From a virus, in the IMG/VR virus record IMGVR_UViG_3300032282_006300, positions 1-64,000 of that record: 64,000 bases of DNA. One strand, 5' to 3'. Position 1 is the stretch's first letter. Each line of letters begins with the position of its first letter. The position numbers and the translations under genes were made by a program. The notes below the pieces were generated by a model. It did no database searches, was not told where the DNA came from, and saw only the letters and a program-made list of their open reading frames with translations. Shown here one piece after another: positions 10,360 through 64,000 of the stretch.

Positions 10360-10384
10360 GTTTTTTATTCCTTCCGGGCAATAT

Positions 10385-32511: not shown

Positions 32512-33348
32512 CTATCCCTCCTCGTAGAAGTCAAACGAGTTCCAAGCCTCGTCCTCGTCCCAATCGTTGTCCCAAGCAGAGCCGTCAGACCCAAGCAAGG
32601 GCACATAGTCAGGGTTGGCAATCTCAGCCAACACTTCATAGCGACAGGTACGCAACTTCTGGAAGTCGCAGTCGCGCGGAACGGATACAACATCGCGAGG
32701 GTTGATTTTCACCTTGACCACGCGAGGTGCGAAGGTGGAGGCGTAGTCCCAAGTGCCAGCGTGGAGTCCGGTAGAACAGCCCTCAAAGGCGTTTGCGTTC
32801 ACGCGATTGCGAGGCATTTCCACGATTGACCCAACAGAGTTCGGGACATTACCGTAGACGGTCTGACCATCTACGATTGCTTCCCCAGAGTGAACCGAGG
32901 TGAGGTCGTCCCTCAGACCCTTGTAGGCGATAAAGTCACCGTCCTCAGTAATGGTGAAGTTCCGGTCGTTGAGCCAAGTGTAAAGTTGCTCACGACTGTT
33001 GCCATTACGGTTCTGGAGTACCTTCTCGTAGAAGTTCACGAGAGGCACGAAATCGTAGATACCCTGCTTCTGAAAGCGCGAGATTTGCGCCGACAAAGAG
33101 TTGTCCACGAGTTCACCATCAACATACACACGACCATCGCTGATTGAGATACGGTCGCTGACCTTCTCAAAGGCTTGTCGTGCTTGCTCGGCTAGGTCAA
33201 ACAAGCCAAACACTTGAGGGTCGTCCTTGATAACTCCCTCAATAATCTGCGCGAACGCAGGGTGATTGTTGGTGGCTGTGTAGACCTTGCCACCTTGTAG
33301 CACCGTAATGGCTGAGCCATTACCTGTGCTGATGAGTTCGTAAAGCAT
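32512..33348 (-). CDS. rIIB: rIIB-like protein
   Basis: NPS-like NRNGNSREQLY...ITEDGDFIAYK...VEMPR...CSTGLHAG...KINPRDVVSVP.D....R.CRYEV. Confidence 0.9.
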   Translation of the reverse strand: MLYELISTGNGSAITVLQGGKVYTATNNHPAFAQIIEGVIKDDPQVFGLFDLAEQARQAFEKVSDRISISDGRVYVDGELVDNSLSAQISRFQKQGIYDFVPLVNFYEKVLQNRNGNSREQLYTWLNDRNFTITEDGDFIAYKGLRDDLTSVHSGEAIVDGQTVYGNVPNSVGSIVEMPRNRVNANAFEGCSTGLHAGTWDYASTFAPRVVKVKINPRDVVSVPRDCDFQKLRTCRYEVLAEIANPDYVPLLGSDGSAWDNDWDEDEAWNSFDFYEEG

Positions 33349-33482
33349 TTCGTTTCCTTCCTTGTAGTTGTTAGTTCTAACTTACCATCTGGGACTGACA
33401 AACCGTGTATTGACGACCGGCGTGTCGTGAGAAGTTTCGGCAGGGCAGGTCAGGCAGGGAAGCCCTGACCTGCCCCTGACCG

Positions 33483-35519: not shown

Positions 35520-35630
35520 TTTGGAACTTCCCTTCGGTTGTTGTTGGTGACGGTCATCACCTTGTGCCCTAATCATTACACGACAAACGCCGATACTCGT
35601 GGATTGAGTACCGGCGTGTCGCGGATTATT

Positions 35631-43716: not shown

Positions 43717-44292
43717 TTATACCTTCTTTGCACATTCTGGACCAAGTCCTGAATGCAAACTAGATGGGACGGTTAATTGGCGGTTACAAAGAGAACAGCG
43801 ACCTGAAATCTTTGCATATTTTTCTCTGGCGGGGTTTGGATCTTTTATCACAGATTGGATGTCTGCGAGCAATAGCGTATCATCTTTAAAACGTTTCCAT
43901 ACCCTTATTTCGACATTGTTTTGAGTTTTTTGTAAATGTCCGAAATTGGTGTATTTGTCCTTTTCTCCCGTATTGTCTAGATATCCAACAATTTGGGTAT
44001 CTGGCATAAAATCGTCGTCTTTATCTTGTGTGCGTATGCGAAAAGTGGTCTTAGAGCCATCCAGACGTACTACAGTGTAAAAACCCTCTGAGAAGCCGTA
44101 GGATGCGTTCTGAGACGTTTTCTGGCAATCTGCGTGCTCAACCCTCCATTCGCCTACTTCTCCAAAGAGAAAGCCTTCTCCGGCTTTTACGGGGGCATTA
44201 CACTTAGCGCAACGAGAATCAAAACGGTTGCGCCTAGATGCTTCTTTGGGGCGGGTGGCAAAAGGGCTACTAAATGCTGGTTTGGCGGTCAT
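43717..44292 (-). CDS. DUF6011-like zinc-finger protein
   Basis: C-terminal GRCSLCNRQLT.P.S...GLGPECA and N-terminal CxxC...H..C. Confidence 0.75.
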   Translation of the reverse strand: MTAKPAFSSPFATRPKEASRRNRFDSRCAKCNAPVKAGEGFLFGEVGEWRVEHADCQKTSQNASYGFSEGFYTVVRLDGSKTTFRIRTQDKDDDFMPDTQIVGYLDNTGEKDKYTNFGHLQKTQNNVEIRVWKRFKDDTLLLADIQSVIKDPNPAREKYAKISGRCSLCNRQLTVPSSLHSGLGPECAKKV

Positions 44293-44372
44293 GGCACAAT
44301 GATTGCACAAATTTGAGCAAAAAGCAAAGATGCTGGCCAATTTTATCAGCCAGCACCTTTTTAGATATTCTA

Positions 44373-44603
44373 CTATTTTTTAATGTTGTTCAATTCATCG
44401 TGACTTGGGTGTTCAGATACCTTACCTATTTCTGGGTTTTTGGGGTCAAAATAAGCAACCAACGTTCGCAAAAAGGCAATACACACAGCCACTGCGATTA
44501 CTTTAACCCAAGGTACATCTTCTACAACAAAAAATGATACTGGCAAAAGTGTCAGCAATGTTGAAAAAAAGGTTGTAAGTGATGATCGAATTAGCATCGT
44601 CAT
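44373..44603 (-). CDS. Putative holin
   Basis: 76 aa, two TM helices, RTLVAYFDPKNP..G end typical of actinophage holins. Confidence 0.55.
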   Translation of the reverse strand: MTMLIRSSLTTFFSTLLTLLPVSFFVVEDVPWVKVIAVAVCIAFLRTLVAYFDPKNPEIGKVSEHPSHDELNNIKK

Positions 44604-44917
44604 TACCTACCTGAATTATCTAGTCGCTCCATAATCCAAAGTTGACGTTCTTCTATACGTTGCATTCTTTCGCATAAATCTTCCATCATTTGGTCACGGT
44701 TCATGGTTAATTCAATTTGTCTTTTCCAACGAGCATAAAGACGGCCAACTCCTGCACCAATGGTTGCAAGACTGACTACAATTGCTGTGATTAAATATGC
44801 ACTACTTACAAAATCATCGTTACTGATTGCTACCCCTACGGCTAACGGAGCGCCACTAGCAATGGCCCCCGTAATACTTAATAAAATTGTGGCTTCGCCT
44901 GAGTCAGTGCCACGCAT
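44603..44917 (-). CDS. Membrane protein with C-terminal coiled coil (possibly lysis-associated)
   Basis: TM segments followed by RMQRIEERQ. Confidence 0.5.
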   Translation of the reverse strand: MRGTDSGEATILLSITGAIASGAPLAVGVAISNDDFVSSAYLITAIVVSLATIGAGVGRLYARWKRQIELTMNRDQMMEDLCERMQRIEERQLWIMERLDNSGR

Positions 44918-45025
44918 TTTAACAGTCCGTAAGGTGCAGGGGGGAGTTTTTGTTTTTCAACATATTATCCTCCCCGAAATGGTATTTACAATCATTAGTG
45001 GTATTTAGTCCCGCCTACACAGGCG

Positions 45026-47650
45026 TTAGAACCAAAGGGTGTCGCTTTCTTCATTTTCTAGAAAAGAAGCCTCAACTTGTGCATAATGGGTGCCTTCAAG
45101 ATTTAAACGGTCAAAGTTGGCGGCCCGAACATCCCCTTGCTCACCTTCTCGAATAATTTGGTCTGCTTCCCCGGAAGTAAAACTCTTCATAGAAATTTTT
45201 TCTAGATATTGTTTTGCGGCTTTGGCAATATCTGAATCTCCAACGGCTGGGCCAACGTTTTCACCATCAAGATGAGAGGCTGTAGCCTGGAACTGAGCAA
45301 CAATGTCATTCACAGAACCTGTGGTTACCAGACTTTCGTTGCTAGGACTGATGTTGCTAAACTTTCCATCTTCTTCTTCTGTAGTGTTGCTACCAGCCAT
45401 CAAACGGCCAACGTCTTTGCCGTCAGTGTTTTTTTGTGGCAAAACCGGCAATTCTGGTTTAGTGCTATGAGTTACATAATTGCCGTCTGTACTTGGCAAA
45501 GCAGGTTCTGGTTCGTCGTTCAAAATTCCTTCTGAACCATCGGTGCGAGGTAGGGCGGCTTCTGGTTCTTCGCGCAGGGTAGCCTCTGAATCAAGATCGG
45601 CTTCAAACAAGAATTCATCATCCAAAGATCCGTAAACGCTACCGACACCCTCAGCGTCACGAGTTTTAACGCTTTGGTCTCCCCAACCACCTGGGTCAGG
45701 AGCAGAGGCGAAACCGGCAGAGGCAGGGTTTTCGCTTTTATCCGGAAGTTTAGTTCCACCGGGTTGGGACATATTAACGTCAACAATTACTTCACCAAAT
45801 GGTGTATTGACACTACCTTCAAAAGCGTGCAATGTGTAATAAGCATCTTCATCACCAAGTGATGCAATATGTTCTGAAACGGAATGTTCAAAAACATTCA
45901 AACTTGAACGTGCGCGAATGTTTTGACCGCTATTGATATCGTGTTTTACAACTACACGACGTGGAACCCAACGGGCCTGCTCGCTTTCACGAATATCTTT
46001 ACCAAACATACCTTGAGACTGTGATTCAAATTGCAAAGCGAGCGCGTGTGAACACATGCGTCCAGCAAATTTGCTATTGTCGTCTGATGCACCCCAATGG
46101 TAGGAGCCCCACTTGCATCCACAAGACCATGAAGAAACTCCCGACTTGCCAGGAAGTTTTTGCAAACCTGTTTCGTATACATTATGGTCGCCCCGCACAT
46201 TTCCGAAAATGTAACCGTCGCGGGCAAGTTTAATATTTACTCCGCCTTCTTGACGAATGCGCTTGGCTTTTGCTCTTACATCAGACCAACCAGCGGTTAC
46301 GTGAAAGGCAAAATCTGGATCCGTTGATGCTTGAGCGATAATGCGATCAATATCTTTAGATATTAAAGATCCAATAGAAGAATCTCCTCCACTACCGCTC
46401 GAGTCGCCAGAATCTCCCGAATCAGAATCGTTTGAGTCTGCGCCAAAACTATCATCAAAATTTAAATCATCTCTACTATCGTCATTTTGATCTTTATCTG
46501 CATCTTCAAAATCGTTAGGGTCATGCACTTGGTTGGCCACGTTGTTGTGCAAATCATTACTAGAAATCATAGGCGTTCCGCAAAGAGGGCAAGCCATTCC
46601 TGGATACGCTTTTGCGTTCCAGTATTTACAATCTGGACAAACAGAACCAGAATGTGGGCGTCGTTTAGATGGATCTGCTTGTTCGGGATCGTTAGAAATC
46701 ATTTCATGGCGATCAACGGATGTTTTATTAAAAGAAGATTTTTTCTTATTATTATTTAAATGGTGACCGCAAGAAGGGCATTGATCAATTGTAATATTTT
46801 TTGGATCTCCGTGATCATCCATTGGATCACCGCAACCACAATTTAAACATGCAATTTTACGAGATGATTCAGTTTTTACATCAGGGCGATTTTCTTTAAT
46901 CCAATTAACAAGATCTTTTTGCAAACCTTCATGAGTCAAAGGTCGTTTTTCTGTGCTAAAAATATTGTCAATTACTTCGTATTTAAGATTTCCATTTTTG
47001 TCGTATCTAGGGTTTGAATCAGCAATATCTAAAAAATCGTAAGGAAGTTCTGGTTTATGGTAAGCACGAACGGTATAGCCCGAAGGGTGAAAAACTTCGT
47101 AATAATGTTCTCCACCTAAATCAACACCATATTTACCTTTGGGATTTTCTCCAAAAGTTTTTTTCAAACCAGCAAGGCCACCATTTTTGCTCGAACAAGG
47201 ATTACAAAGAGGTGCATCCTCTTCATCAGGAACCACCATATTGGTTCCGCAATCTGCGCAATTGCTTCGTTTACCGACAATCCTAGAACCCATTTTAGTA
47301 TTAATGGCAATGTCGGGTCTTTCAATTAAAATATTGCCAAGTTCTGGGTAATCATCGGCGGCCGTAACCACATTGCTAATAACCTGTGCTTGAACAGATT
47401 TGTTGGCTACCACAGATTTAATTTGGTTGGGGCTGTATTCCCCAGCGCCGAGGTTGTTGTCTAAGACAATGTGGTAAATCTCAGTTCCGCTTACAGGGCC
47501 ATCCTTGATGTCGGAAATCAAACCAGCAATTCCGTCAACAGTCATTACGTGCTGACCTACTTGATAGTCAGTATCTGAACCCTGATCAAAAGCATTTTTG
47601 CGCACAGAATCAGTGTCGTGAAACCTAGCGTTACGCCGACCAAGACTCAT
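45026..47650 (-). CDS. Modular head-associated protein with SWIM-like Zn finger
   Basis: WSCGCKW...CSH SWIM-like motif, KxA-delimited modules, directly downstream of portal. Confidence 0.65.
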   Translation of the reverse strand: MSLGRRNARFHDTDSVRKNAFDQGSDTDYQVGQHVMTVDGIAGLISDIKDGPVSGTEIYHIVLDNNLGAGEYSPNQIKSVVANKSVQAQVISNVVTAADDYPELGNILIERPDIAINTKMGSRIVGKRSNCADCGTNMVVPDEEDAPLCNPCSSKNGGLAGLKKTFGENPKGKYGVDLGGEHYYEVFHPSGYTVRAYHKPELPYDFLDIADSNPRYDKNGNLKYEVIDNIFSTEKRPLTHEGLQKDLVNWIKENRPDVKTESSRKIACLNCGCGDPMDDHGDPKNITIDQCPSCGHHLNNNKKKSSFNKTSVDRHEMISNDPEQADPSKRRPHSGSVCPDCKYWNAKAYPGMACPLCGTPMISSNDLHNNVANQVHDPNDFEDADKDQNDDSRDDLNFDDSFGADSNDSDSGDSGDSSGSGGDSSIGSLISKDIDRIIAQASTDPDFAFHVTAGWSDVRAKAKRIRQEGGVNIKLARDGYIFGNVRGDHNVYETGLQKLPGKSGVSSWSCGCKWGSYHWGASDDNSKFAGRMCSHALALQFESQSQGMFGKDIRESEQARWVPRRVVVKHDINSGQNIRARSSLNVFEHSVSEHIASLGDEDAYYTLHAFEGSVNTPFGEVIVDVNMSQPGGTKLPDKSENPASAGFASAPDPGGWGDQSVKTRDAEGVGSVYGSLDDEFLFEADLDSEATLREEPEAALPRTDGSEGILNDEPEPALPSTDGNYVTHSTKPELPVLPQKNTDGKDVGRLMAGSNTTEEEDGKFSNISPSNESLVTTGSVNDIVAQFQATASHLDGENVGPAVGDSDIAKAAKQYLEKISMKSFTSGEADQIIREGEQGDVRAANFDRLNLEGTHYAQVEASFLENEESDTLWF

Positions 47651-47671
47651 AACCCGCCCTCTCAGATACCT

Positions 47672-47708
47672 CTACCCTTTCGGGGGCATATATGCCAAAT
47701 GAAACAGG
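47672..47708 (-). promoter_or_regulatory. Putative late promoter (CCTGTT-N22-AAAGGGTAG)
   Basis: Copy of the recurrent motif. Confidence 0.7.
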
Positions 47709-47713
47709 CTAAA

Positions 47714-49807
47714 TTAAGCCTGATCTTCGTCTAGGTCAATATCTTCTCGGGTCAAGTGACGGCGCATACCTACCACCTTGGGGTCTCCGAACTTGCCTCT
47801 TGGCAAGGGATCGGAAGGTAACAATAAGCCAGATTCGTTGTAAATGGCGTCATTATTTTCTTCTAAAGGTGCTGGAATTTTGTAATGTTCCCTTGCAATC
47901 CCTCGCATACGGCCAGCCTGCTTGTACAAAACGGCCTGACTTGGCATACCAGCCCTCATCTCGTCTGACTCTTCTGGTCGCTGAGCAGGGGCATCATCTT
48001 GTTCTGCCTGCACTTCATCTTCAAGATTTGATGGAATAGTGTTCATCAAATCATCCTCAGTGGGAGCCAAGTTTGGCTGTATAGCATTGGGGTCCGTACC
48101 CAAAGTAGTAACCCTCGTGTTTTGCATTGCATCCGCAGATGGTCCAGCAGTGGGCTCAAAATCGGCTCGCAAGTCCATTGGAATAGGAAGACCGCGGTCG
48201 CGCAATGCCTGATACATAGCCTTGCGGGTTTCTTGTTCTGCAATAGCCAATTGCACTTGCTCTTCTTGGGTGCGCTCAACTTCTTCATCAAGATCAAAAG
48301 GAATATTGAGGAGGCGAGTTTTGATAGAGATAGGAACTCCAGCGGCCCGCAATTGCTCGTAAAAATCACGTTGGTTTTGTTCGTCGGACAGATTCATTGT
48401 CTTGAAACGAAGTTCGGGAATCAACAGTTTGGGTTGTTCAACGATACGCTCTTCGCCTGTTTCTTCGTCAATTTCAAGAACTTCTTCCATTTTGACGTAA
48501 CGCTTACCGTTGCGAACTTCATAATCAAAATGTTCTTGTGCCTCGGCAACAATCAGTGCACGACTACGGTAATGGTTTGCGATCATCTGCTGGTAAGAAG
48601 TAAGCAACTGGCTTACGAGGTCTCGGTTCAAAGCATCCGCCGCATATGTTTCACCAGCGGATGCACCAGAAAGCATGGTCTGGCTCAAACCAAACGACTG
48701 AAGAATACGTCCTTCTAGCCGGTCAAAATCTGCACTCATGTCGGGCATATTTTCGCGACCGAAAACAGATTCCATTTGGATACCAAAATGGTGAACCAAA
48801 ACGCGGAAGTCCGCGGCCAATGCTTGGTCAAGGGCTTCTTCAAAGTTACCCAAGTCGTCATCTGTTGGAATCCAAGGAACTGTTGTCCCCAAGTCTCCGG
48901 CACTTGCGCCCAATTTTGCAAGAATAAGCGGAGTGTAGAGTCGGTCGGCGATAGCATCTTGCGCGGCGTTAAGCATTTCTTCTTGCATAACCGCTCGCAT
49001 GGCACGCATCAAGATCGGCACGCCACGCTTGTTAAACGTATCTGCTTCAAATTTCATTTGTTTCAGCAACACATTGCTGACAGGCATCAATGCTCCATCA
49101 GAAGCATACTGAAGCAATTCTGGGTAATTCTGGATCAAACGTTCATATTCGTATGAAGGTGAGCGCTTTTGGATAATTTCACGAAGTGATTGAGGCAATT
49201 TGATGTATAGATGTGGATCTCGAGAAAAAGGACTGCGTTCAACTTCTACATCGTCAGGGTTGAGAAGTTCTTCATCTTCCCAGACACCAAGAGCCTCATT
49301 GAAAGAACCCAATGACATGGCTTCACCAACGGTCCAATATTGCTTTCCAATGTCAATCAGAAACTTATCGTAATTTAATCCATCTGGACTAAAAAAAAGA
49401 TCGGTATAAAATTCGGTGAGTTGCTCATCTTTACAAACCAACTCGGAACCGAGCAAAGGATATTTGGAGTAAATGTCCACGCAAGATGCAACAATTGGGT
49501 GAGTCAAGTAAAGCAGACGACAGAAGGCCCGGACCTTTTTAAGTTCTTCGTGCTTTTCCACCTCGTAAGGTAGGTTGTTTTGTTTCCAGTAAAACAGTGG
49601 GTCACGAGGACGACCTGTGGCAAAGGACAATTGTGATCCACCACGACCAGCACCCGATGTAGCAGAAGCAGTACGACGGTTTACTGCGCGGTTCTTTCGC
49701 ATCTCTGCAACTTCAGGATTGTCATCTGTAGTGCTTGTTCGACGAAAACTACCTAACGTTTTCATTACAGATTCATCATATGAAGACGGTTTGCTTTCGT
49801 CAGCCAT
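47714..49807 (-). CDS. Portal protein (cluster C-like)
   Basis: CRLLYLTHPIVASCVDIYSKYP...LLNPDDV...RGVPIL.RA...AQDAIADRLYTPLILAKLG. Confidence 0.85.
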   Translation of the reverse strand: MADESKPSSYDESVMKTLGSFRRTSTTDDNPEVAEMRKNRAVNRRTASATSGAGRGGSQLSFATGRPRDPLFYWKQNNLPYEVEKHEELKKVRAFCRLLYLTHPIVASCVDIYSKYPLLGSELVCKDEQLTEFYTDLFFSPDGLNYDKFLIDIGKQYWTVGEAMSLGSFNEALGVWEDEELLNPDDVEVERSPFSRDPHLYIKLPQSLREIIQKRSPSYEYERLIQNYPELLQYASDGALMPVSNVLLKQMKFEADTFNKRGVPILMRAMRAVMQEEMLNAAQDAIADRLYTPLILAKLGASAGDLGTTVPWIPTDDDLGNFEEALDQALAADFRVLVHHFGIQMESVFGRENMPDMSADFDRLEGRILQSFGLSQTMLSGASAGETYAADALNRDLVSQLLTSYQQMIANHYRSRALIVAEAQEHFDYEVRNGKRYVKMEEVLEIDEETGEERIVEQPKLLIPELRFKTMNLSDEQNQRDFYEQLRAAGVPISIKTRLLNIPFDLDEEVERTQEEQVQLAIAEQETRKAMYQALRDRGLPIPMDLRADFEPTAGPSADAMQNTRVTTLGTDPNAIQPNLAPTEDDLMNTIPSNLEDEVQAEQDDAPAQRPEESDEMRAGMPSQAVLYKQAGRMRGIAREHYKIPAPLEENNDAIYNESGLLLPSDPLPRGKFGDPKVVGMRRHLTREDIDLDEDQA

Positions 49808-50112
49808 TAAGACTCCAGACCAGAGGTATACATGTCCCAAGCCTTATGGCCCAGACTACGGATAACATTACCAAAGACACGACGATCTTCCCAATCAGGC
49901 CTACCGTCGTTTTGATACATCATTTTGACGTATTCAGTTAAATTGTCAGAACAAATGCCACACAACTGAATGTAGAAACCCGGCCCTCTTACAATGGCTT
50001 CCGCCGCGATTCCGTAAATGGAGGTTGCTACCGCAGAATCTAGGCGATATGGGTGCAAAACCATAGGCGTAGGCGAATGGAACTTAGATCCTTCGCATAG
50101 TTCGGAGGACAT
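49807..50112 (-). CDS. Hypothetical protein
   Basis: 101 aa, coupled to portal. Confidence 0.55.
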   Translation of the reverse strand: MSSELCEGSKFHSPTPMVLHPYRLDSAVATSIYGIAAEAIVRGPGFYIQLCGICSDNLTEYVKMMYQNDGRPDWEDRRVFGNVIRSLGHKAWDMYTSGLES

Positions 50113-50771: not shown

Positions 50772-50807
50772 CTACCTTTTTGGAGCCGTTTAAGGTGATG
50801 CGACAGG
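50772..50807 (-). promoter_or_regulatory. Putative late promoter (CCTGTC-N21-AAAAGGTAG)
   Basis: Copy of the recurrent motif. Confidence 0.65.
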
Positions 50808-51866
50808 GGTTTTGGGCTCGTTCAGGGCTTTCATGTACCAAGACATGTTTTCTTGCAATCTGGGGTCTTCAGGAAACAAGTCTAATGCTTTTTGACCATA
50901 GGATAGGGCCAGATCATGCGCACCGCAATTATGGGCGCATAAAGCCGCAATATCATAGATGTAGAAATTCCAGGCTTTATCTTCTGTGATGTATGCGGGG
51001 TGTTTAAAATCCATAGAAACTGCTCTATTGGCCATGCCAAGACCACATTGCCAACGACCTTCGTTGTAATACAATTCTGCCAATTCTACAAAAGGTTCTC
51101 TGCGGTCAGAAGTTTCTGCACAAGCCTTTAGTAACCAAGTTTCAGCATTGTTGGGTTCGCATTTGGCGAGCATAATCATTGATTCAGAACGTTCGTATGA
51201 CCAACCACCAAGGGTTAGATAACGTTTAAGTTCTTCGGCACATTCTTCAAAACGTTGAACATAAAATAATTCTCTGCCGTAATAAAAAGACATACGGGAA
51301 TCATCCGGCAAATCTTTTACTGCTTGTTCAAGCATAGGTAGGTAATTGCGGGGTTTGGTGCGATCTGGCATATGTTCGCTAATTACCTTACTGCTGGCCC
51401 TAATGCACGGTGTAACTTCAAGCATTTCGTGAATAGGCCAAACCCAACGTGAGCCGTGGCGAGCATGGATGTTTACACGTTCCCAACTTTGCAATGGCGT
51501 TCCATCGGGCAATTTGCTATTGATAAATAAATAACCAAATTGTGTGGCTTCTGGATTTTCTTCAATAGTTTTTTCTAATTCTTCTCGCCATCCTTCATGC
51601 AAAATTTCATCCATATCGACACTGAAACAAAAATCAACATCGTCGGGGATAAGGTTGAGCGCATCATTGCGTGCCTGATCAAATTTAAAAGTTTTATATT
51701 TTTTCTTATGAACCGTTACGCCAGAGGCTTTGGCAATTTTGACGGTATCGTCTTCTGAGCCTGTATCAAGAATTAAACGAACGTCTGCATCTTTTGCTGA
51801 TTCAGCCCAACGGGCAACATGCTTGGCTTCGTTTTTGGCTATTGAATATACAGCGATCTTTGGCAT
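50790..51866 (-). CDS. GT2 glycosyltransferase with TPR repeats
   Basis: IAKNE...DTGSEDDT...FDQARNDAL...VDMDE...W..PIHE plus TPR-like helical C-terminus. Confidence 0.88.
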   Translation of the reverse strand: MPKIAVYSIAKNEAKHVARWAESAKDADVRLILDTGSEDDTVKIAKASGVTVHKKKYKTFKFDQARNDALNLIPDDVDFCFSVDMDEILHEGWREELEKTIEENPEATQFGYLFINSKLPDGTPLQSWERVNIHARHGSRWVWPIHEMLEVTPCIRASSKVISEHMPDRTKPRNYLPMLEQAVKDLPDDSRMSFYYGRELFYVQRFEECAEELKRYLTLGGWSYERSESMIMLAKCEPNNAETWLLKACAETSDRREPFVELAELYYNEGRWQCGLGMANRAVSMDFKHPAYITEDKAWNFYIYDIAALCAHNCGAHDLALSYGQKALDLFPEDPRLQENMSWYMKALNEPKTPVASP

Positions 51867-53719: not shown

Positions 53720-55462
53720 TTAACCCATATCGTTTTCAATTTGTGGATCGAAAGAACTAAGACGATGGGTACGTTGCCATCCCCATACAGGGTTGTAATA
53801 ACCATTTGGAGTATTTTTATGCACATGGTTCATAATATGTGTATGCGCGTGAACACCAAAAAAATCAGTAAGTTCTCGATGATCAGACGGTGATACGTTG
53901 TATTTCTTGTACATAGCAAGTTGGGGTTCGGTTGGTTCGTCGTTATAAGTTTCACTGATCGCGTGATCTTCAGAACAATCGTCCGCACCGGCCGTTTTAT
54001 TAAAATTTAGGCGACTGCTAGATTGGCTAGAAACTTTGAGCGACTTATAATCGCTGTGCAAGCGCTTGCTTGCGGCAACAGCCTCGTCACGGGTTTGGTG
54101 TGAGGAAAGAACATTGCCTGATTTCTTGTCAATGATTACCCACATGCCATTGCGCTTACGCACATTGCCAGCCGCGGTACGGCGTGAGGCAGTCTTGCGG
54201 GAGGCAGTGGTGCCCATTGGGTAAGAACGATCCGGGTGCGTGTGATCAGCATGGCCATCGTTGTGCATCTGATCGTGCAAATTTGCAATAGTCTCTTCGT
54301 GAGCACTGCCACGGTCTTCATCATCCTTAATAGACAAATCAGGCCCAGGAAGAAATTCAGTCCAAAGATTATGATCGTTCTCAATGTGCTGAACCATAGG
54401 GTGGCTTTCCACGTCGTCAGGATCAACCCCCCAGCCAAGGATGTTTGCGAGATACGGGCCTTCCTTGGGGGCATCATCCGAACCTGCAACCAGGAGAGGG
54501 TTGTCTTCTTCATCGCCTGGGTGCCAGTGGTCAATACTGCCATCGGCGTGCTCATTGTCATGTTTTTCTTTAAGCAATTGCCCGACATCAGTGCGTCCAC
54601 CATTACGCGCTTTGTATGCTGCGTCGTCATGAACTTGGCTCAAAATATCACCGGCACCATTGCCGTGATCTTCAACAAGGTGATCCATAGCCTCGTTAAT
54701 GTGGTGATCTTCAGCAGCGGTCTTGCGGGAGGACTGTGCACGCTTGTGATCACTCATACCACGTCCATCGCAACCTGGACAAGTGTTATCACCATGATTA
54801 ATCTCGCCATCTGTGGTACCTGTGCCATTACAAGAAATACAAGTCATATGGCCAGTCTTGCGAGCGGCAGTGGTGCTGTTGTCTTCTGATTGGCATTGAG
54901 GACAAACAAGATGTAGTTTTCCATCAAACGTGGTGTAATCTGACCAATTTTCTTTTTTGCCAGAGAACCCGCACTTATTACACTTAGCAGAAGACCCGTC
55001 ATCACCAGCGGTACGGCGTGAGGAAGTGGTGTTGCCTCTCTGCCTTTTGTCATATTCAGCAAAGGGGTCGGTGTCTTTGTATTCAGGCAAATTATTTTTA
55101 TTTGCGTGTTCTCCGAAAAACTCACAAGCCAAACATACATTTGGGTCTTCAGCATCGCATCCACAAGGGCAACTGCAAATACCGTTGTTTGCCAACTTGA
55201 CGTTACCGGCCTCAACCAGCATTTCCCAACGGTTACGCAAAGAAGCAGTAACTTCATCAAGAGGAACACCTGTGCTATCTGACAACTCCTGAATGCTCGC
55301 GGTGGCCAGCATTAGGCGACCTTCGAACTCATCGTTGGTCTGCGCCAGAGCAAGGTATTGCATGACACCAGTTGATGCCACACGGAGGTTAGCCTGAGCA
55401 ACTAGACGCGCTTCTGAATCGTAATCGCGTGAAGCCTCATCCCAAACGGAGTAGCCATCCAT
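53720..55462 (-). CDS. SRKTA-delimited modular polyprotein (putative internal head protein)
   Basis: SRRTA, ARKTG, SRKTA x2, SRRTA and FNKTA separate Cys/His modules. Confidence 0.7.
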   Translation of the reverse strand: MDGYSVWDEASRDYDSEARLVAQANLRVASTGVMQYLALAQTNDEFEGRLMLATASIQELSDSTGVPLDEVTASLRNRWEMLVEAGNVKLANNGICSCPCGCDAEDPNVCLACEFFGEHANKNNLPEYKDTDPFAEYDKRQRGNTTSSRRTAGDDGSSAKCNKCGFSGKKENWSDYTTFDGKLHLVCPQCQSEDNSTTAARKTGHMTCISCNGTGTTDGEINHGDNTCPGCDGRGMSDHKRAQSSRKTAAEDHHINEAMDHLVEDHGNGAGDILSQVHDDAAYKARNGGRTDVGQLLKEKHDNEHADGSIDHWHPGDEEDNPLLVAGSDDAPKEGPYLANILGWGVDPDDVESHPMVQHIENDHNLWTEFLPGPDLSIKDDEDRGSAHEETIANLHDQMHNDGHADHTHPDRSYPMGTTASRKTASRRTAAGNVRKRNGMWVIIDKKSGNVLSSHQTRDEAVAASKRLHSDYKSLKVSSQSSSRLNFNKTAGADDCSEDHAISETYNDEPTEPQLAMYKKYNVSPSDHRELTDFFGVHAHTHIMNHVHKNTPNGYYNPVWGWQRTHRLSSFDPQIENDMG

Positions 55463-55480
55463 AGTTATATTTCCTCTTCC

Positions 55481-58141
55481 TTAGTTTTCTTTGGTTACAA
55501 GAGAGATATTATCTTCAATTGCTTGACGGAAGTTGGCCAGACGGCGAGCACTCGTCAATTGTTGTGTTGCTGGCATTGAGACGTTGATCTCGGCATTAAT
55601 CACACCTTGACCAAAGGGCTCAACACCATTGTAGGGTGCAGGACCACCGGGACGAGCGGGATCAGTTCCTCCAGCGTTAGGACCATCGCGGCCCGGACCG
55701 TTAATGGGGGTTTCACCAACGGGGGAAGGTGTAGCGTCTGGAGCCATAGTGTCAAGGTCAGTTGACGTGGCACTCTCAACGCGAAGGTAAGCACCCTTCA
55801 TAATTCCACCTTGATCAGAAATGACCTTCAAGGAGAAATCTTTATGAAGTGCAATGCGCTGGCTAAACTCTGGATACTTGTTGGCTTGCTTGCGATGCTT
55901 GGCAACCCAAGCCTCTTGAGAACCAATGTTGTCAGAGATACCTGCGTACAGGCCAGCCTCAAACTCGGCAGAACCGGTGCGAACCAATGGCTTGCTTGCG
56001 TCCCATTTGCTTGCAAACTTGTAAGCCTTACGGAATTCAGGGTCCTGATTTGCATCTTCTGGAGTGAAAAGGCTAGAGGTGCGTTGCGCTTGTGCTTCGT
56101 CCAATTGCCTTTCTAGATCCTTGTTGTTTTCTGGTGCGTGTTTGGGAGATGGTGAATTTCCTCGCCAAATCTGGTCACTTTCATACCTTTGACTGTAAGG
56201 CAAAGTTTCATCATCAATATATTTGCCCGGACGATTAAGGTGCAATTTACTTACGTCGGTTGGAAGATCCGCGGCTGGACCTTTACGACGAAATGGGTTG
56301 CGACCAGCGGTACCACTCAAAAATGCCTGACCATTATCGCCACCGGCTGAGTAAGGCATGTCCTTGGGGTTACGCTCATCGCGTGCTTCGCCAATACCCT
56401 TTTGGTAACCTGCAACATAACCGGAGGAGAAAGCAAGACCACTTGATGCATCAGAGTAGGTAGGTGCATCACCATTGGCGCCATCAGCCATACCGGCCGC
56501 AAAACCAGCGGTGTACGAGCCACCCTGCTGAGGTTGTGGGGTAGTAGCAGGGGAATTTGCTACATCAGGTTGTGCAACTGCGTGAGGTGCATCGGAGTTA
56601 CCGTACATGTCAGCAGTTTTGCGAGAAGCCGTTGGCGGTGCTATGCCGTCGAGAAACGGTCCCCTGCAATCATCGCAACTCCACCTAGTTTGATTAGGAT
56701 TCCCATAAGAGATATAGACAGACGGTTTTGCCCCAGCGGCTCCACAATTGTCGCAAGTTGCTTCAGCAGCAGTCTTGCGGGAGGCGTTCTTGGGCGCGTT
56801 GACTTCAGCGGGAACCATACCCATGCCACCGCAATTACCGCAGGAGTTCTTGCCATCTTTAGTCTTTCCAGTGGCATCACAAGAACGGCAAGAAAAATCA
56901 GCGGGAGCAGCAATACGGCGAGAGCCGGTAAAACCAAATTCGTGTTGTCTACCCGGCAAATATCCGCGAAGGTGTTCGTTTATGTGGGCTTTGGCGTCCG
57001 CAACGCTTTCATGGTCGTGCTGATTTTGATCGTCGTGGGTATTTTCATTTCCCATAATTGTGAAAATACGATTGGGATCATCTCCACTTTGATAAATGTG
57101 ACCGAATGCAAAATTGCCATCTCTGTCTTTAGTCTCTGCGCTGTGTAAAAGTGGATCATCTCCACCATTTGGATCAATTCCACCCTCGTCATACCACTGA
57201 ATTTTAGCAGCAGTCTTGGTTGCGGCAACAGCCTTATCAATTGCTGCTGGTGCCGCCTGAGTAAAATCCTGATCATCAGCCTCTGGGTCCACAACCGGAC
57301 CGCCAAGCATCCAAGGGTAAGCAACTTCACCCGGAAGTGGGGTGGGCTTGGGCATGTTGTTGGGGTCAATGGTTTGAGCAATCTGATCCAAGGTGCTTGC
57401 GGCTTCACGCTGACGAAACTCATCCAAGTTGTAGGAGTGAGAAATGGCAACTGAAGTTACATTAGCAAAGTTAGCGGTTCCGCCACCGGGAACTGGGGGC
57501 CATTCTCCTTGGCCTTGTCCTCCACCAAGTTGCTCAATTTCAGCAAGCAATGGGTTGTTGTAAGTTCCCTCTTGCGCGACAGCCTGATCATTAATCGGGT
57601 GAACTGGGTCTTCAAAAGTGGGGAAGGTAGCCGCAGGGTATTCAGTAGCCTTGGGCATGTTATTGGGATCAATGAGTTGGTCAACCTGATCCAAGCCGGA
57701 TGCGGCTTCGCGGTTCAAGAATGCAACGTATTGCAAGAACGACTGCTCGGCGTCAGGTGCATAAACACCGTAAGTGCTGGCGGTACGACGAGCAATACCA
57801 CGGGCCTGCTCAACAAACTCTGGAACGTCATTTTTGACTTCGTCAGAGATGCGGTTGAACCACAATGATGCTTCAGCCATCACTGCTTGGTGATAGTTAT
57901 TGTCCTGAGTGTCGTCATCCATGCTCAACCAGTCGGTGGAGGCAGTGTGAAACTCGTGCACTCGCACGGGCGACAATGTCTGCTCTACAATCGCGCTGGT
58001 GAAGTCTAGACTTCGGTCTTCAGCGATGTTGCTGGCCTGACGAGCGTCAAGTGCTTCAAGTTCTGAAACCAAAGCGATCTGCTCAGCAAGAGATGATGCT
58101 TTTTGCAAGGATGCCATGATTTCGGCACGAGAGTTGTTCAC
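55481..58141 (-). CDS. SRKTA-delimited modular polyprotein (putative internal head/core protein)
   Basis: Duplicated REAAS.LDQ..Q.IDPNNMPK, plus KTAA, SRRIA and SRKTA x2. Confidence 0.7.
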   Translation of the reverse strand: MNNSRAEIMASLQKASSLAEQIALVSELEALDARQASNIAEDRSLDFTSAIVEQTLSPVRVHEFHTASTDWLSMDDDTQDNNYHQAVMAEASLWFNRISDEVKNDVPEFVEQARGIARRTASTYGVYAPDAEQSFLQYVAFLNREAASGLDQVDQLIDPNNMPKATEYPAATFPTFEDPVHPINDQAVAQEGTYNNPLLAEIEQLGGGQGQGEWPPVPGGGTANFANVTSVAISHSYNLDEFRQREAASTLDQIAQTIDPNNMPKPTPLPGEVAYPWMLGGPVVDPEADDQDFTQAAPAAIDKAVAATKTAAKIQWYDEGGIDPNGGDDPLLHSAETKDRDGNFAFGHIYQSGDDPNRIFTIMGNENTHDDQNQHDHESVADAKAHINEHLRGYLPGRQHEFGFTGSRRIAAPADFSCRSCDATGKTKDGKNSCGNCGGMGMVPAEVNAPKNASRKTAAEATCDNCGAAGAKPSVYISYGNPNQTRWSCDDCRGPFLDGIAPPTASRKTADMYGNSDAPHAVAQPDVANSPATTPQPQQGGSYTAGFAAGMADGANGDAPTYSDASSGLAFSSGYVAGYQKGIGEARDERNPKDMPYSAGGDNGQAFLSGTAGRNPFRRKGPAADLPTDVSKLHLNRPGKYIDDETLPYSQRYESDQIWRGNSPSPKHAPENNKDLERQLDEAQAQRTSSLFTPEDANQDPEFRKAYKFASKWDASKPLVRTGSAEFEAGLYAGISDNIGSQEAWVAKHRKQANKYPEFSQRIALHKDFSLKVISDQGGIMKGAYLRVESATSTDLDTMAPDATPSPVGETPINGPGRDGPNAGGTDPARPGGPAPYNGVEPFGQGVINAEINVSMPATQQLTSARRLANFRQAIEDNISLVTKEN

Positions 58142-59643
58142 TGGTTCTCCTCTAGATCAAGCACTTGACGTGCTCTTTGGGCGATGGCTGAAGCCGTACG
58201 CCGATTGTTTTTGATTGCTGCTTTGTTAACTGATGGTGCGTCTGAAAATTTCAAACCACCCGCACCAGGAACTTTTTCTACGAAACCGCAAGTAGAACAT
58301 TTATAATCGTTTGCGCCTTTTTGCAATGTCATCATTGTACCATCACGAGGGCATTTTAACTCTTCGGCAGAAGGTTTGTTGGCGAGTGGATCATGTTGAC
58401 GGCCAAAAGGAATTACATTGCTGTTTCCACCCGGAATGCCTGTGCTAGGTAATTCAATTTGACTCATGTTGTAAGGATTACGTACAACTGTTCGATTTCG
58501 TTTTACGGGAGAAGAAGTTCCTGAATCTGTGTCCACGTAGGCTTCACCGCTTTGAGTTTCAAAAGAACGTGTACGGCGAATTTTTTCATTACCTTGGGTA
58601 ATTGGGTGGAGAATGTAATCTTGTGGTGTTAAATTTTGAACTTGAGTGGGGATCAAAGTCGCATTCTTGTTTGAGGAAGTGGCTTTGTTATTCGGAGTTT
58701 TACGAGCGCCGCGAAAATTGCGCATCATTGTATGATAGACATCGTCCGCAGCGTATCTTTTTTGCGAAGTCTCGTGCTCTTGGAACGGGCTTACGCGATG
58801 GTACTGTGTGCCTTTTGGACCTTCAACGGTAAAAACACCAGCCTTGTAACCGTAGGCTTTATTTCCAAAATCATTATCTGGAACGTGTTCGTGATAACTG
58901 ATATTGTGTTCAACGCCATCGGGACCAATAAATTGCATGGATTCCCCGTGTTGAAGCCCATGAATCTGTGTCCACGTAGGCAGTTTTGCCCACCAGGGAT
59001 TTTCATTTTCAGCAGTTTTGCGAGAAGCCTCGGTGTGCTCACCGCTTTGAACGTGGAGGTCTGGATCGTACCAATCGTCGTGACCATAGTGTTCGAAATA
59101 ATCTTTTCTGTTTGCTGAATACCACGGGGCGATAACTTCTTTTCCGCACGCAGAGCAACGTTCTCCCATTGGACCGGTAGAATCCCAAGATGCAATGGAA
59201 CCACATGATCCTTCGCATTCTTTAGTCTCTGGGCCGTGGCAATCGGTACAATAGATTTCTCCATCATGGGCGTAGCCTTTTAAGAATTTGTCAGACGCAG
59301 TTTTGCGAGAGCCGGTAAAACCCGGATCTTTTTCGCGGTCGTAGGGGCGGTCGGGAGTGCCTACTGCCGGGTCGTTTTTCGTGCAATTGTCGCACTTAGG
59401 AAAAGAACTATCTTCAGGCACGAGCATATTAGTCCCACAGTTAATACAACTACCGCGGACAGCAATTTTAGAATTAGCGAAAAAAATGTCATAAGCCGAC
59501 TTCTTTGCCATTTGCCGTCTAACCTTCTTCTGGTCGGTGGATGGATTACGCCTTACTTGGCTGTCAGAACCCCTCATAGGTTCTTGCTTCGGAGCGTCCT
59601 CATTACGAGAAACACCCTTTGGCTTTGCAGCCTCATACTGCAT
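58138..59643 (-). CDS. SRKTA-delimited modular polyprotein
   Basis: SKIA, SRKTA x2 and RRTA with Zn-ribbon modules, late promoter upstream. Confidence 0.7.
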   Translation of the reverse strand: MQYEAAKPKGVSRNEDAPKQEPMRGSDSQVRRNPSTDQKKVRRQMAKKSAYDIFFANSKIAVRGSCINCGTNMLVPEDSSFPKCDNCTKNDPAVGTPDRPYDREKDPGFTGSRKTASDKFLKGYAHDGEIYCTDCHGPETKECEGSCGSIASWDSTGPMGERCSACGKEVIAPWYSANRKDYFEHYGHDDWYDPDLHVQSGEHTEASRKTAENENPWWAKLPTWTQIHGLQHGESMQFIGPDGVEHNISYHEHVPDNDFGNKAYGYKAGVFTVEGPKGTQYHRVSPFQEHETSQKRYAADDVYHTMMRNFRGARKTPNNKATSSNKNATLIPTQVQNLTPQDYILHPITQGNEKIRRTRSFETQSGEAYVDTDSGTSSPVKRNRTVVRNPYNMSQIELPSTGIPGGNSNVIPFGRQHDPLANKPSAEELKCPRDGTMMTLQKGANDYKCSTCGFVEKVPGAGGLKFSDAPSVNKAAIKNNRRTASAIAQRARQVLDLEENQ

Positions 59644-59666
59644 ATTAGGCCTCCACAATCAATCTC

Positions 59667-61491: not shown

Positions 61492-61714
61492 TACCTCTCA
61501 GCAATTCAATTTCATCATCGGGAGAAAATGATTGTTTTTCGGTAACATCATTTGTTACAAAAGTAACGATAATCATGGATACGTGCCCTAAACTAGAATT
61601 GGCATTGTTAATATTGGTAACATAACTTCTACCAAAATCTGTTTTAATAACTTGACCTTTTTTAATATCGCCAGCAAGAATTATCAAAGGGGTTTGGCGT
61701 TCTTCAGACATCAC
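61481..61714 (-). CDS. Hypothetical protein
   Basis: 77-aa coupled ORF. Confidence 0.5.
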   Translation of the reverse strand: MMSEERQTPLIILAGDIKKGQVIKTDFGRSYVTNINNANSSLGHVSMIIVTFVTNDVTEKQSFSPDDEIELLRGIDE

Positions 61715-64000
61715 TGCGCCCCCTCTTTTTTATCAATACCAAAACGGGCATTTACAAGAGGTTGCCATAAACCTTTTTGATCTAAATATTTTTCGGCGGC
61801 ATTGCGGTAGTCAAAAACCCCGCGACCAGAAGGTTTGAATGCGCCCTTGCGAGATTCGTGGATAAATTCCCACAGTTGTCGGGCACGGCGGTTGCGGGAA
61901 GGTTCTGGCAACTTGAGAATGTTCTCAATTTCTACAGCCAATCCTTCAAAATAATACCATTCGCTTTGATTAAACTGGTGACCTTCTGGTGCCTCAATCG
62001 GTCGCACTGCCCATTCATCGTCAGTTAAATTATAAGCCGCGTAAGGTTTTAACACACTAATATCGTAAGAATGGGGATTGACGTAAAAAGTAGCAGACCA
62101 AGGGCCAACCTTAATTTTTCCACCAAATGGTTCACCGTTCCATTCCCATTCTGGAATGCCAATAAAAGGCACATTAAAATATGCTTCTTCAATGTTGCAG
62201 TGTTCGCGTAATTCTGCATTCATATGTGCAGAAATTTTTTCAGGAGACATTGTTGCAAATTGTGGATTGCTTTCAATCAAACCACCGTATTCAATTCCAA
62301 TCAAGGTATCAAGATCATCATTAAGATGGTATCCTTGAGATGCGCCGATTTCAGGATTTTTTACTGCGCTAGGATCTGCCCACCATTGGCTTACAGAAGA
62401 ACCGGCAATATAAACTTTACTCCAGTTTTTCCATTCTTTGTATTGGCTGTCCCATAATTCAGCAATACGGTTTATAATGGATTCACGAATTTCTGGGCGA
62501 ATCTTGTCATCTTCAAAAAGACGTGGATCTAGGCTACCAATAGTTGGCGCAAACAAGCGCTGGTTAGGTCGCCAAGAATCAAGGACTGCATTGCGTTCAT
62601 TTGCATTCTTAGAAGCATGTGGGTGAAGTGTTTTTACAAGGTGGTCATGCCACGCCCTGCCTTCACTTGTTTTACGATTTGAATGAATAGGTTTGGTGTC
62701 GGCTAAACCTAACATGTGTGCTTCGTGCGCTTTTGTAAGCATTGTAGTAGCGATACCGTGATATTGATATCCTGGATCTACTTCAATCCAATCAATCTCA
62801 CCTGGAGATAATTTAGAAAGATCGTCTCCATGTCGATCTGTCCATGATAATACTCCAATTTGTTCGTTATTATGATGGACAGTTATTCTATGAGAACCTC
62901 CCTTTTCCGGCGATTCTTTAAAGCGATATTCAATATTTTGTGGGTGAGGGGCATTACTCATATTTTGTGTATAAGTTTTATTTGCCTCATCTAAATTTTT
63001 TTGAAAATCTAAAAATGCATCTTCAGATTTACTTTTATAATACTCGTTTTCATGTTTATTTATTGCATTTTGAAGACGGGCATCTTCCTGTTTTTTAATA
63101 GTCAGGAAAGGATCTTCATCACTAGCAAAATGCTGGAGTAGGCTTAGGCTTGGAGGTAATGAAGACACCCACGCTTCACCGTCATCACTCAGGATATCTG
63201 AGTGCTGGGGTTTAGTAATTGCTCTACCAGAATAATGGGCATCGCGAGCCTTTTCCATCATTTTTGTAGCAATACCATGACGTTGATATTCATCATCCAC
63301 GTCAATGTTGCTGATTTCACCAGAAAAATAGCCAGAACTATATTTATCGTGGGTATCAGTCGCCCAACGAAGGTTGCCAACTTGTTTGCCATCATGGTTC
63401 GCAGTTACTTCATGCATGCTGCCAACCGTGCCAACAGCGCGATAAAACTTGTATTCTACGTTCATTGGGTGTGGTGCTTTTCGCATATTTTGTATATAAA
63501 TTTTGTATGCATTTGAAAATTCTTCATTAGAACCACGCTTTGCCGCATTAAGTTTAGCCTTTTCCTGCTTTTTAATCGTCAGAAAAGGATCTTCATCACT
63601 AGCAAAATGCTGGAGTAAGGAAGCCAAGGTGGGATTTTTTTCAACCATGCGGTCATACCATGCTTGACCTTGAGTGGTTTTGTGATCGGAATGTTCAATA
63701 CGTGTACTGGCATCACCAAATTCGTAAAATTCCCGAGCCTTTTTAATAAGATTAGTAGCAATGCCATGACGTTGGTATTCCGGGGTTACTTGGATGTGGC
63801 CAATTTCCCCAGGAAAAAGACTATGACGTGTTTTTTTTTCATCATTAGCCCAGCGAACATGACCAACTTCTTCGCCATTATGGTAAGCAGTTACTTGATG
63901 CATTTGGTTTCCACCATGTTCAGAACGTTTATTAAATTCGTATTCTACGTTCATTGGGTGTGGGGCTTTTCGCATATTTTGTATATAAATTTTGTATGCA
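61711..64000 (-). CDS. Polyprotein with at least 3 tandem GNAT acetyltransferase domains and a C-terminal nucleotidyltransferase-like domain (5'-truncated)
   Basis: Three GEI...V.PEYQRHGIAT motif-A copies and IAGSSVS...DDLDTLI (Pol-beta-type GS...DxD). The frame stays open to the window edge. Confidence 0.8.
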   Translation of the reverse strand, partial: AYKIYIQNMRKAPHPMNVEYEFNKRSEHGGNQMHQVTAYHNGEEVGHVRWANDEKKTRHSLFPGEIGHIQVTPEYQRHGIATNLIKKAREFYEFGDASTRIEHSDHKTTQGQAWYDRMVEKNPTLASLLQHFASDEDPFLTIKKQEKAKLNAAKRGSNEEFSNAYKIYIQNMRKAPHPMNVEYKFYRAVGTVGSMHEVTANHDGKQVGNLRWATDTHDKYSSGYFSGEISNIDVDDEYQRHGIATKMMEKARDAHYSGRAITKPQHSDILSDDGEAWVSSLPPSLSLLQHFASDEDPFLTIKKQEDARLQNAINKHENEYYKSKSEDAFLDFQKNLDEANKTYTQNMSNAPHPQNIEYRFKESPEKGGSHRITVHHNNEQIGVLSWTDRHGDDLSKLSPGEIDWIEVDPGYQYHGIATTMLTKAHEAHMLGLADTKPIHSNRKTSEGRAWHDHLVKTLHPHASKNANERNAVLDSWRPNQRLFAPTIGSLDPRLFEDDKIRPEIRESIINRIAELWDSQYKEWKNWSKVYIAGSSVSQWWADPSAVKNPEIGASQGYHLNDDLDTLIGIEYGGLIESNPQFATMSPEKISAHMNAELREHCNIEEAYFNVPFIGIPEWEWNGEPFGGKIKVGPWSATFYVNPHSYDISVLKPYAAYNLTDDEWAVRPIEAPEGHQFNQSEWYYFEGLAVEIENILKLPEPSRNRRARQLWEFIHESRKGAFKPSGRGVFDYRNAAEKYLDQKGLWQPLVNARFGIDKKEGAQ

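Follow-up and report, generated by a model that had tools for sequence, protein, structure and literature searches.

The window analysed here, bases 1–64000 of the 123,830-base virus record IMGVR_UViG_3300032282_006300 (139 open reading frames, ORFs, and 39,263 amino acids, aa, in the full record), encodes three adjacent proteins, P0001, P0002 and P0003, which carry repeated copies of a five-residue motif, (S/A)-R-(K/R)-T-A. We consider it likely, from sequence comparison, that these motifs are prohead-protease sites in head-associated proteins, in each of which a leader and variable modules precede a conserved core. The feature is real and statistically strong; it would best be explained by an enzyme of a known type that has a new cleavage specificity and acts on substrates of unusual modularity. 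Computed directly were the enrichment and positions of the motif, conservation, the exchange of modules and the fold of the protease; we infer cleavage itself, the exact bond, the entry of P0001–P0003 into the prohead and the fate of the fragments. In the proposed mechanism, the motif would be recognised and cut by the phage's own gp21-fold protease, located at the N-terminus of ORF 12837–18683, with a specificity approximating basic–(T/V/I or other)–Ala and a cut that probably falls after the Ala. P0001–P0003, encoded in a packed block upstream of the portal gene, would be head-associated proteins in which a conserved N-terminal leader is followed by a variable series of small zinc-ribbon, DnaJ-type zinc-finger or His-rich modules, with P0002 and P0003 adding a core and a short helix. 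As the prohead matures, this protease would shorten the N-termini of the major head protein (MCP) and the portal, release itself from its long C-terminal extension, and cleave P0001–P0003 at as many as 15 sites, giving no more than 18 pieces.

Repeated motifs in P0001, P0002 and P0003

The strict pattern [SA]R[KR]TA was found four times in P0001, three times in P0002, twice in P0003 and in none of the other 56 of the 59 window ORFs, and the observed count was reached by none of 300 composition-preserving shuffles per ORF in any of the three. The looser R[KR]T[AG] occurred 13 times in the whole record, with 11 copies in P0001–P0003 and single copies in the portal (NRRTAS, residue 55) and the protease fusion (ARKTG, residue 373), and the remaining 134 ORFs were devoid of it. 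The enrichment anticipated by the initial annotation of this DNA is thus present, and so are the other two N-terminal copies that it listed, RRTA in the portal and RKFA at residues 6–9 of ORF 12044–12775. The annotation had also described the motif as recurring throughout six ORFs; this was correct for the nine strict copies of P0001–P0003, but not for ORFs 45026–47650, 22394–25069 and 12837–18683, in which we found only weak matches (SSRKIAC at residue 264 in the first, three [KR]TA against 0.4 expected in the second, and ASKTA and ARKTG in the third). The bare KxA, which it likewise took to be recurrent, was scarcely enriched in any ORF. Over 135 distinct contexts from three families, the consensus was [AGS]-[SA]-R-[RK]-T-A-[AGSD], and the putative cleavage-site peptide can be written as ..TASRKTASRRTAAG...

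The three ORFs are closely packed on the minus strand, P0003 and P0002 overlapping by 4 nt and P0002 and P0001 being separated by a gap of 18 nt. In P0001 (580 aa; 53720–55462), the N-terminal leader is followed by motif-bounded modules, namely two CxxC zinc modules, a 176-aa His/Asp-rich block, a 61-aa basic module and an 89-aa His-rich tail. Its sites are SSRRTA at residues 148–152 (site 1, the S-S-R-R-T-A region, 55007–55021), AARKTG at 200–204 (site 2, A-R-K-T-G, 54851–54865), SSRKTA at 245–249 (site 3, S-R-K-T-A, 54716–54730), the tandem ASRKTA–SRRTA at 421–425 and 426–430 (sites 4 and 5, 54173–54202) and NKTA at 488–491. P0002 (886 aa; 55481–58141) has a conserved N-terminal region (1–280) with IARRTA at 116–121 (site 1, A-R-R-T-A, 57779–57793) and a variable middle (~281–503) bounded by TKTA (308–311), SRRIA (407–411) and ASRKTA (453–458; S-R-K-T-A of residues 454–458, 56768–56782). 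A further copy, ASRKTA↓DM at 505–512 (S-R-K-T-A of residues 506–510, 56612–56626; the arrow marks the predicted bond), stands directly before the conserved C-terminal core and opens it; within the C-terminal part, blocks 504–606 and 681–850 are conserved, and the family ends in a conserved tail with the consensus AFRxxVQAxLL. Alignment of 37 sequences of this family showed that Arg118 was invariant and that Arg119, Ala121, Ala510 and Asp511 were at least 90% conserved. P0003 (58138–59643, 501 aa from the ATG at 59643, or 506 aa from the TTG at 59658; residue numbers refer to the 506-aa form) begins with a conserved basic leader and a zinc ribbon, followed by GSRKTA at 116–121 (site 1, S-R-K-T-A, 59296–59310, with a flank, GFTGSR, that it has in common at the DNA level with P0002 at 56921–56935), ASRKTA at 211–216 (site 2, S-R-K-T-A, 59011–59025) and ARKTP at 318–322. 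Its C-terminal part consists of a conserved core (an SH3-like barrel and a zinc ribbon), NRRTA at 485–489 (site 4, N-R-R-T-A, 58192–58206, 17 residues from the C-terminus) and a 17-aa helix.

In the structure model of P0003, all four sites lay within or bordered segments with a predicted local distance difference test score (pLDDT) below 50 between better-folded blocks, ~47% of the model being of low confidence, and a fold search returned only the small SH3/KOW-like barrel at 331–391, with a Z score of ~7 that is within the tool's range for unrelated matches. The Protein Atlas model of P0002 (pLDDT 0.43) was largely of low confidence or disordered and gave no usable look-alike. The zinc fingers of P0001–P0003 had DnaJ-type or Anti-TRAP matches, all of them sub-threshold, and family searches identified no peptidase, enzymatic or effector family among the modules. 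Cutting in silico at every strict or loose site, 15 in all, yielded 18 fragments of 5–376 aa, of which eight contained CxxC pairs and several others were His-rich. Thus the modules are in part Cys/His-rich as the initial annotation had described them, but their sizes spread well outside the 30–100 aa that it had given, and 18 predicted fragments are fewer than the 'dozens of peptides' it had envisaged. Reading the ORFs as precursors of ribosomally synthesized and post-translationally modified peptides was considered and dropped, as the modules are folded domains of 45–190 aa and the motif is linked with proteins of head assembly.

At the DNA level, the three words noted earlier at the joints were all present, at 56613, 59012 and 59297, at 54192, 54720 and 56772, and at 56921 and 59308 respectively, and none of 100 shuffles reached these counts. 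The words are the reverse complement of the motif codons. The joints fall into three codon sub-variants common to the three ORFs, and one joint has 26 nt in common, flank included; this much of the claimed conservation of the joints as DNA stands, but identity beyond the demand of the peptide was confined to the first Arg (CGC in nine of 11 copies, compared with 24% genome usage). Sub-variants in common, a preferred first codon and a 26-nt joint are what would be seen if the repeats were functionless leftovers of a recent duplication of joint plus module. We regard this as very improbable, because the peptide motif is retained while the flanks diverge across the 135 contexts of three families, because upwards of 100 protease fusions carry the motif at positions that are not homologous, and because neutral substitution within the motif is contradicted by the conservation in the P0002 alignment and by the 135-context consensus.

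The prohead protease and basic-x-Ala sites in head-assembly proteins

The candidate enzyme is the N-terminal domain of a 1948-aa fusion protein (12837–18683, minus strand), the first ~250 residues of which match the head-maturation protease profiles phrog_2774 (1.6e-59) and phrog_18299 (1.7e-20), with the C-terminal part matching DUF7178. The AlphaFold model of the protease (pLDDT 79.8) was folded over residues 1–210 (~18054–18683), followed by a linker, 211–247, with pLDDT<50. A Foldseek search with this model gave chains of 5JBL (T4 gp21) as the top three matches (probability 1.00, E 6e-4, TM 0.55 by target); these were the only significant matches, with the human cytomegalovirus (HCMV) and varicella-zoster virus (VZV) proteases lower in the list, and a comparison of the domain with solved structures by sequence gave no match. 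Judged by its predicted structure, the protease of the window is a member of the gp21 fold class. Five candidates for the catalytic Ser and His residues (His85, His103, Ser143, Ser151 and His169) were invariant in 37 sequences.

We analysed the fusion and its relatives for copies of the site. In the window protein, ASKTA (residues 231–235, with KTA at 17979–17987; AASKTAH at 230–236 in context) is located in the predicted disordered linker directly after the protease domain, and ARKTG follows at residues 372–376 (17556–17570). The protease family comprised 2451 cluster representatives at E<=0.001. Nearly all of its top 150 proteins had an N-terminal protease plus extensions, with total lengths of 249–2422 aa, and R[KR]T[AG] occurred 66 times in these 150 fusions compared with 11.1 expected. 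Among the 110 members with an EEPADP anchor, the window's own protein excluded, 42 (38%) had [KR]TA no more than 30 residues beyond the protease core, compared with 132 of 2720 other windows (4.9%), and the typical form was AASKTA[SAM]. A complex prediction for the protease domain with residues 405–445 of P0001 scored 0.02, which counts neither way.

The same kind of site was seen where the polyproteins of relatives are joined. The gene order in the window (protease fusion, 243-aa module, scaffold-like protein, phrog_2783 protein and MCP) is identical with that of two cultured phages, Rhodococcus phage E3 and the Bxz1-type Mycobacterium phage Rizal (NC_011272). Four relatives carry the protease and the 243-aa module in one polypeptide, and two of them (L061, 1047 aa, and L063, 1511 aa) add the scaffold-like protein, so that the polyprotein must be cut; the 292-aa scaffold-like protein of the window (11071–11949, minus strand) corresponds to the C-terminal part of the polyprotein in L061 and L063. 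The separate 243-aa zinc-ribbon protein of the window (12044–12775, minus strand) starts ..PQRKFA↓YGETKAPADVDTLRDE, with RKFA at 12749–12760. In relatives, and in E3 and Rizal as well, it forms part of the protease polypeptide, and its conserved module, YGET..DTLRDE..CPxC, is preceded by SKLA, GKTAA or RRTAS in relatives, by RKQA in E3, by RKFA in the window and by LQA in Rizal.

A corresponding site was present in the MCP and in the portal. The MCP (ORF 9373–10443, minus strand, likely start 10359, 328 aa; phrog_2522, 5.6e-103) has the N-terminal sequence ..LKGRVA↓KKSDDYV, with RVA at 10312–10320. Of 80 loci fetched, 70 showed the anchor (S/A)(K/R)(K/R)SDDY, and [RK]-x-A preceded it in 68; E3 and Rizal have GRFA↓KASD. 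The portal (47714–49840, minus strand; phrog_2833, 3.7e-158), the core of which is 41–44% identical with the portals of E3 and of cluster C (Bxz1-type) mycobacteriophages, carries NRRTAS in an N-terminal extension (codons 49667–49681), ~15 residues before the core that it has in common with these phages. The extension retains a sequence resembling EMRxNRRVxxRKTAA, and [KR][TVI]A was found at that place in 23 of 33 readable relatives by manual count. The portal ORFs of three relatives (L037, L047 and L052) are 964–1097 aa long and match the window portal only from residue 344–529 onwards, which points to either an N-terminal fusion or a large inserted segment, perhaps an intein.

Rizal offered a second genome in which to locate the motif. 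[KR]TA[AGS] was found 20 times in its 150 kb against 7.5 expected, and 13 of the 20 were in gp86, gp87, gp93 and gp94, the genes around the portal and the protease, with gp94 containing five (0.22 expected), gp86 four (0.13 expected) and gp93 three RTA[AG] sites. Residues 35–226 of gp94 (43988–48100) were 45% identical with the protease domain of the window, and ANNKTA↓G follows directly after that domain. By sequence, gp94, which is annotated as 'tape measure', is the prohead protease fusion, and the actual tape measure is gp127. Taken together, one short [KR]-x-A site occurs at the post-protease boundary, at polyprotein junctions and at the N-termini of the MCP and the portal in hundreds of relatives, including E3 and Rizal. 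This placement is in keeping with the proposal of the initial annotation that the prohead protease acts at these motifs, read as [KR]-x-A. In several cases, the conserved block starts directly after the Ala (YGET.., DMYGNS.. and KKSDDY..), suggesting that cleavage would occur after this residue. Herpesvirus assemblin cuts after Ala (A↓S), and the T4 and phiKZ-type enzymes cut after Glu.

We considered whether the motif might instead be a linker element with another role, namely modification of its Thr (phosphorylation, or glycosylation through the product of 50790–51866) or a basic patch contacting nucleic acid. Thr is present in 135 of 135 cargo-type copies, by construction of the pattern, and a family-2 glycosyltransferase gene lies inside the same gene block. 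However, the MCP sites mostly have Val or Ile in place of Thr and the junction sites have Phe, Leu or Gln, and placement after the protease domain and at polyprotein junctions is predicted by a cleavage site rather than by a modification site, making this role improbable. That a different protease of host or phage cuts the sites, for instance once the proteins have entered the next host cell, is in our judgement quite improbable. Various peptidases have been proposed to process polyvalent proteins of phages, either ahead of their delivery or following it (PMC5512222); in the present case, however, the motif co-occurs with this protease family in very different genomes and at the protease's own C-terminal boundary, and the family searches of P0001–P0003 found no peptidase domain.

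Exchange of modules at the motif and possible fate of the predicted pieces

To compare module content, relatives of the three proteins were collected. P0002 had 87 database matches including itself, nearly all of them metagenomic, on contigs of up to 162 kb; a single-protein scan of viral contigs with P0002 gave no match and an alignment-based scan gave matches. Most P0002 homologues had only one or two copies of the motif. The 25 matches of P0003 displayed a conserved leader, variable SRKTA-bounded inserts and a conserved core, which in many members begins directly after [AS]SRKTA↓T, and the C-terminal helix SAIAxRARxVLxxEEN was conserved. P0001 had few relatives, with the first 85–93 residues and also single modules in common and the remainder different. 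Conserved leaders are common to otherwise different proteins, and the motif follows them.

Modules and leaders were found in more than one family. Residues 409–460 of P0002 (52 aa, with the motif on both sides) were 88% identical with a module of P0088, a homologue of P0001; residues 114–217 of P0003 were 47% identical with the middle module of P0025, a homologue of P0002; and residues 499–554 of P0001 matched the middle module of P0006. Three hybrids (P0033, P0043 and P0049) carried a P0003-type leader of ~50–60 residues on a P0002 body with the joint (Q/N)(S/N)RRTAAE, indicating that leaders have been exchanged between families at the motif. We then took homology blocks of 50% identity or more and located their internal ends; of these 90 ends, 17 lay within six residues of a motif, compared with 7.2 at random (P ~4e-4, 5000 simulations). 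As a pattern in the sequences, it is supported that module boundaries coincide with the motif and that modules move between protein families, as the initial annotation had suggested. The pattern would be equally explained by joint DNA that promotes exchange or by selection for in-frame, site-flanked insertions.

Several observations weigh against reading the motifs as prohead-protease sites. The homology-block endpoints are non-independent, several relatives having the residue-504 boundary in common. The strict motif was not enriched genome-wide in two complete high-GC relatives (six copies against 6.1 expected in G002 and eight against 5.0 in G004); hence the general recognition rule would have to be looser than SRKTA, and, together with the few copies in P0002 homologues, this confines the multi-copy design to the clade of the window. 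Loose-motif counts in high-GC relatives were uninformative owing to spurious Arg-rich ORFs. In the protease family, 58 of the 110 members had no [KR]TA in the post-domain window. The middle position of the MCP sites is mostly Val rather than Thr, and several portal relatives have RKRA, RKQA or RKHG at the site. Sites that lie within conserved blocks (residue 118 of P0002, the MCP and the portal) could be conserved for structural reasons. P0001–P0003 matched nothing in PHROGs, Pfam or NCBIfam, and tblastn with P0002 found no match in 50,697 deposited phage genomes, so that their putative association with the virion rests on gene position and the shared motif. A literature search, supplementary tables aside, found neither cleavage nor virion proteomics data for this phage group. 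In addition, no paper on the motif or on the cleavage specificity of this protease family was found, supplementary files aside, and the middle residues of portal and P0002 sites gave no clear pattern of co-variation across relatives.

If the prohead protease does cut at the motifs, the pieces could meet different fates. They might form a cargo system, much as the initial annotation had proposed, in which the leader (with the C-terminal helix in P0002 and P0003) would bring the chains into the prohead, ~18 small zinc-binding or His-rich proteins would remain with the DNA and accompany it into the host, and the motif would serve as the boundary at which cassettes are swapped between genes and between phages to give a phage-specific mix. 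The modules look like folded domains and appear conserved when moved (88% identity between different proteins), which would favour such cargo, but they resemble no known effector or enzyme, the P0002 model is largely of low confidence or disordered and the P0003 core is only a generic SH3/KOW-like barrel; we therefore hold this outcome to be rather unlikely. A possible alternative, to which we give somewhat more credence while still doubting it, is that the same protease cuts but the modules are parts of N-terminal propeptides with assembly roles (targeting, scaffolding or space-filling) that are diced and lost, so that the cores of P0002 and P0003 stay and no effector cargo exists. In the P0002 family, and likewise in that of P0003, the conserved core follows directly on the last internal motif, and many family members, such as P0101–P0105 (305–375 aa), are without middle modules. 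According to PMC10052503, most cuts in phage SPN3US remove N-terminal propeptides of 111–254 residues that are multiply cut and mostly lost from the head. This loss is harder to reconcile with modules that resemble folded zinc-binding domains rather than spacers, with the high identity of the 52-aa module in P0002 and P0088, which suggests selection on the modules themselves, and with P0001, which is without a conserved C-terminal core in common with its homologues.

Comparison with known systems and genomic setting

T4 gp21 cleaves each internal protein once, after the Glu of (L/I)-x-E. The T4 internal proteins IPI–III resemble the present proteins in that a conserved leader at the N-terminus is followed by a protease site and then by a variable body, and the protease fold matches that of T4 gp21 (5JBL); however, they are single small proteins, whereas P0001–P0003 are multi-module chains. 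Protease–scaffold polyproteins and herpesvirus assemblin are similar in that a protease carries a scaffold-like part at its C-terminus, from which it must release itself, but the extension here reaches 1700 residues and contains unrelated modules. The herpesvirus cleavage consensus is not known to include the basic residues before the Ala.

A further likeness is with phiKZ, 201phi2-1 and SPN3US (gp175/gp245), in which a gp21-fold protease acts on many head substrates, itself included, at one short motif. According to PMC10052503, substrates of the SPN3US prohead protease include the portal, the MCP and ejection proteins, and the enzyme also cuts on its own C-terminal side; long N-terminal propeptides are cut several times internally, giving multiple cuts per protein, and the cut positions of this protease and its relatives are documented by mass spectrometry. 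The SPN3US motif ends in Glu (A-X-E; PMC10052503), in contrast with the basic-x-Ala predicted here from sequence. The substrates of these phages are not described as chains of exchangeable mini-domains, and the phages are Gram-negative jumbo phages, whereas the present lineage is actinophage-like with genomes of ~124–155 kb. P0001–P0003 showed no sequence homology to known processed head or ejection substrates (PHROG, Pfam and NCBIfam searches; tblastn of P0002).

Polyvalent proteins (Iyer et al. 2017, PMC5512222) are also large mosaic multi-domain proteins of late or head genes and, in the portion of that paper available, are thought to be packaged and processed and to undergo rapid domain shuffling. 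They are defined there by known effector, enzymatic or DNA-binding domains, often with a peptidase of their own, whereas none of these was detected in P0001–P0003, and the same portion does not mention a fixed motif between modules. The features that would set the present system apart are the predicted basic-x-Ala specificity, the extremely long and modular extension of the protease, and chains of mini-domains split by a near-identical five-residue site at which modules and leaders appear to be exchanged. The predicted specificity would cover the protease family of 2451 representatives, including that of the well-studied cluster C mycobacteriophages, and would provide a simple sequence-only rule for finding substrates of this protease. 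Building blocks that lie between protease sites and move from gene to gene would show with unusual clarity how the contents of phage heads evolve in a modular way and, if fragments do reach the host, would supply small host-directed phage proteins from a new source. The prediction is open to direct test in cultured cluster C mycobacteriophages.

The profile matches of the portal, the MCP, the rIIA/rIIB genes (32512–35576; rIIB-like 32512–33348 and rIIA-like 33483–35576) and the protease identify the window as the late/structural region of a large, actinophage-related phage of myovirus-like type. The minus strand carries 124 of the 139 ORFs of the full record, and megablast of the region gave no DNA-level match to deposited phages. 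The E3 gene in the position corresponding to P0001–P0003 is gp70, which is non-homologous and annotated as 'structural protein', and a profile comparison of the P0002 family with E3 gp68 found no relationship (probability 0.8%). The 874-aa Cys-rich protein just downstream of the portal (45026–47650, minus strand) is a homologue of Rizal gp93 and E3 gp76 ('LysM-like protein'), and a putative SWIM-like zinc motif, CxC...CxH, was noticed by eye near its residues 510–545. The family-2 glycosyltransferase (50790–51866), which also has a TPR repeat, sits among the head genes between the motif-rich ORFs and the portal; the glycosyltransferase cluster of Rizal is located elsewhere in its genome.

Other regions of the window had features of their own. 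ORF 22394–25069 (891 aa) gave no family match and contains many CxxC/His clusters, a D-rich acidic run at ~410–435 and Ala/Gly-rich low-complexity sequence at ~655–705. The segment 26000–36000, which contains the rIIA/rIIB-like genes, has a higher G+C content (0.52–0.56, compared with ~0.40–0.47 elsewhere) and may have been acquired separately. Finally, a GNAT acetyltransferase ORF (61711–64000) runs past the end of the window; in the full record it extends to 66036 and encodes 1441 aa. Three repeats within it (residues ~550–628, 713–791 and 875–950) resemble residues 381–447 of the ORF covering E3 gp70, which is annotated as a virion structural protein, and it may be another large packaged multi-domain protein.

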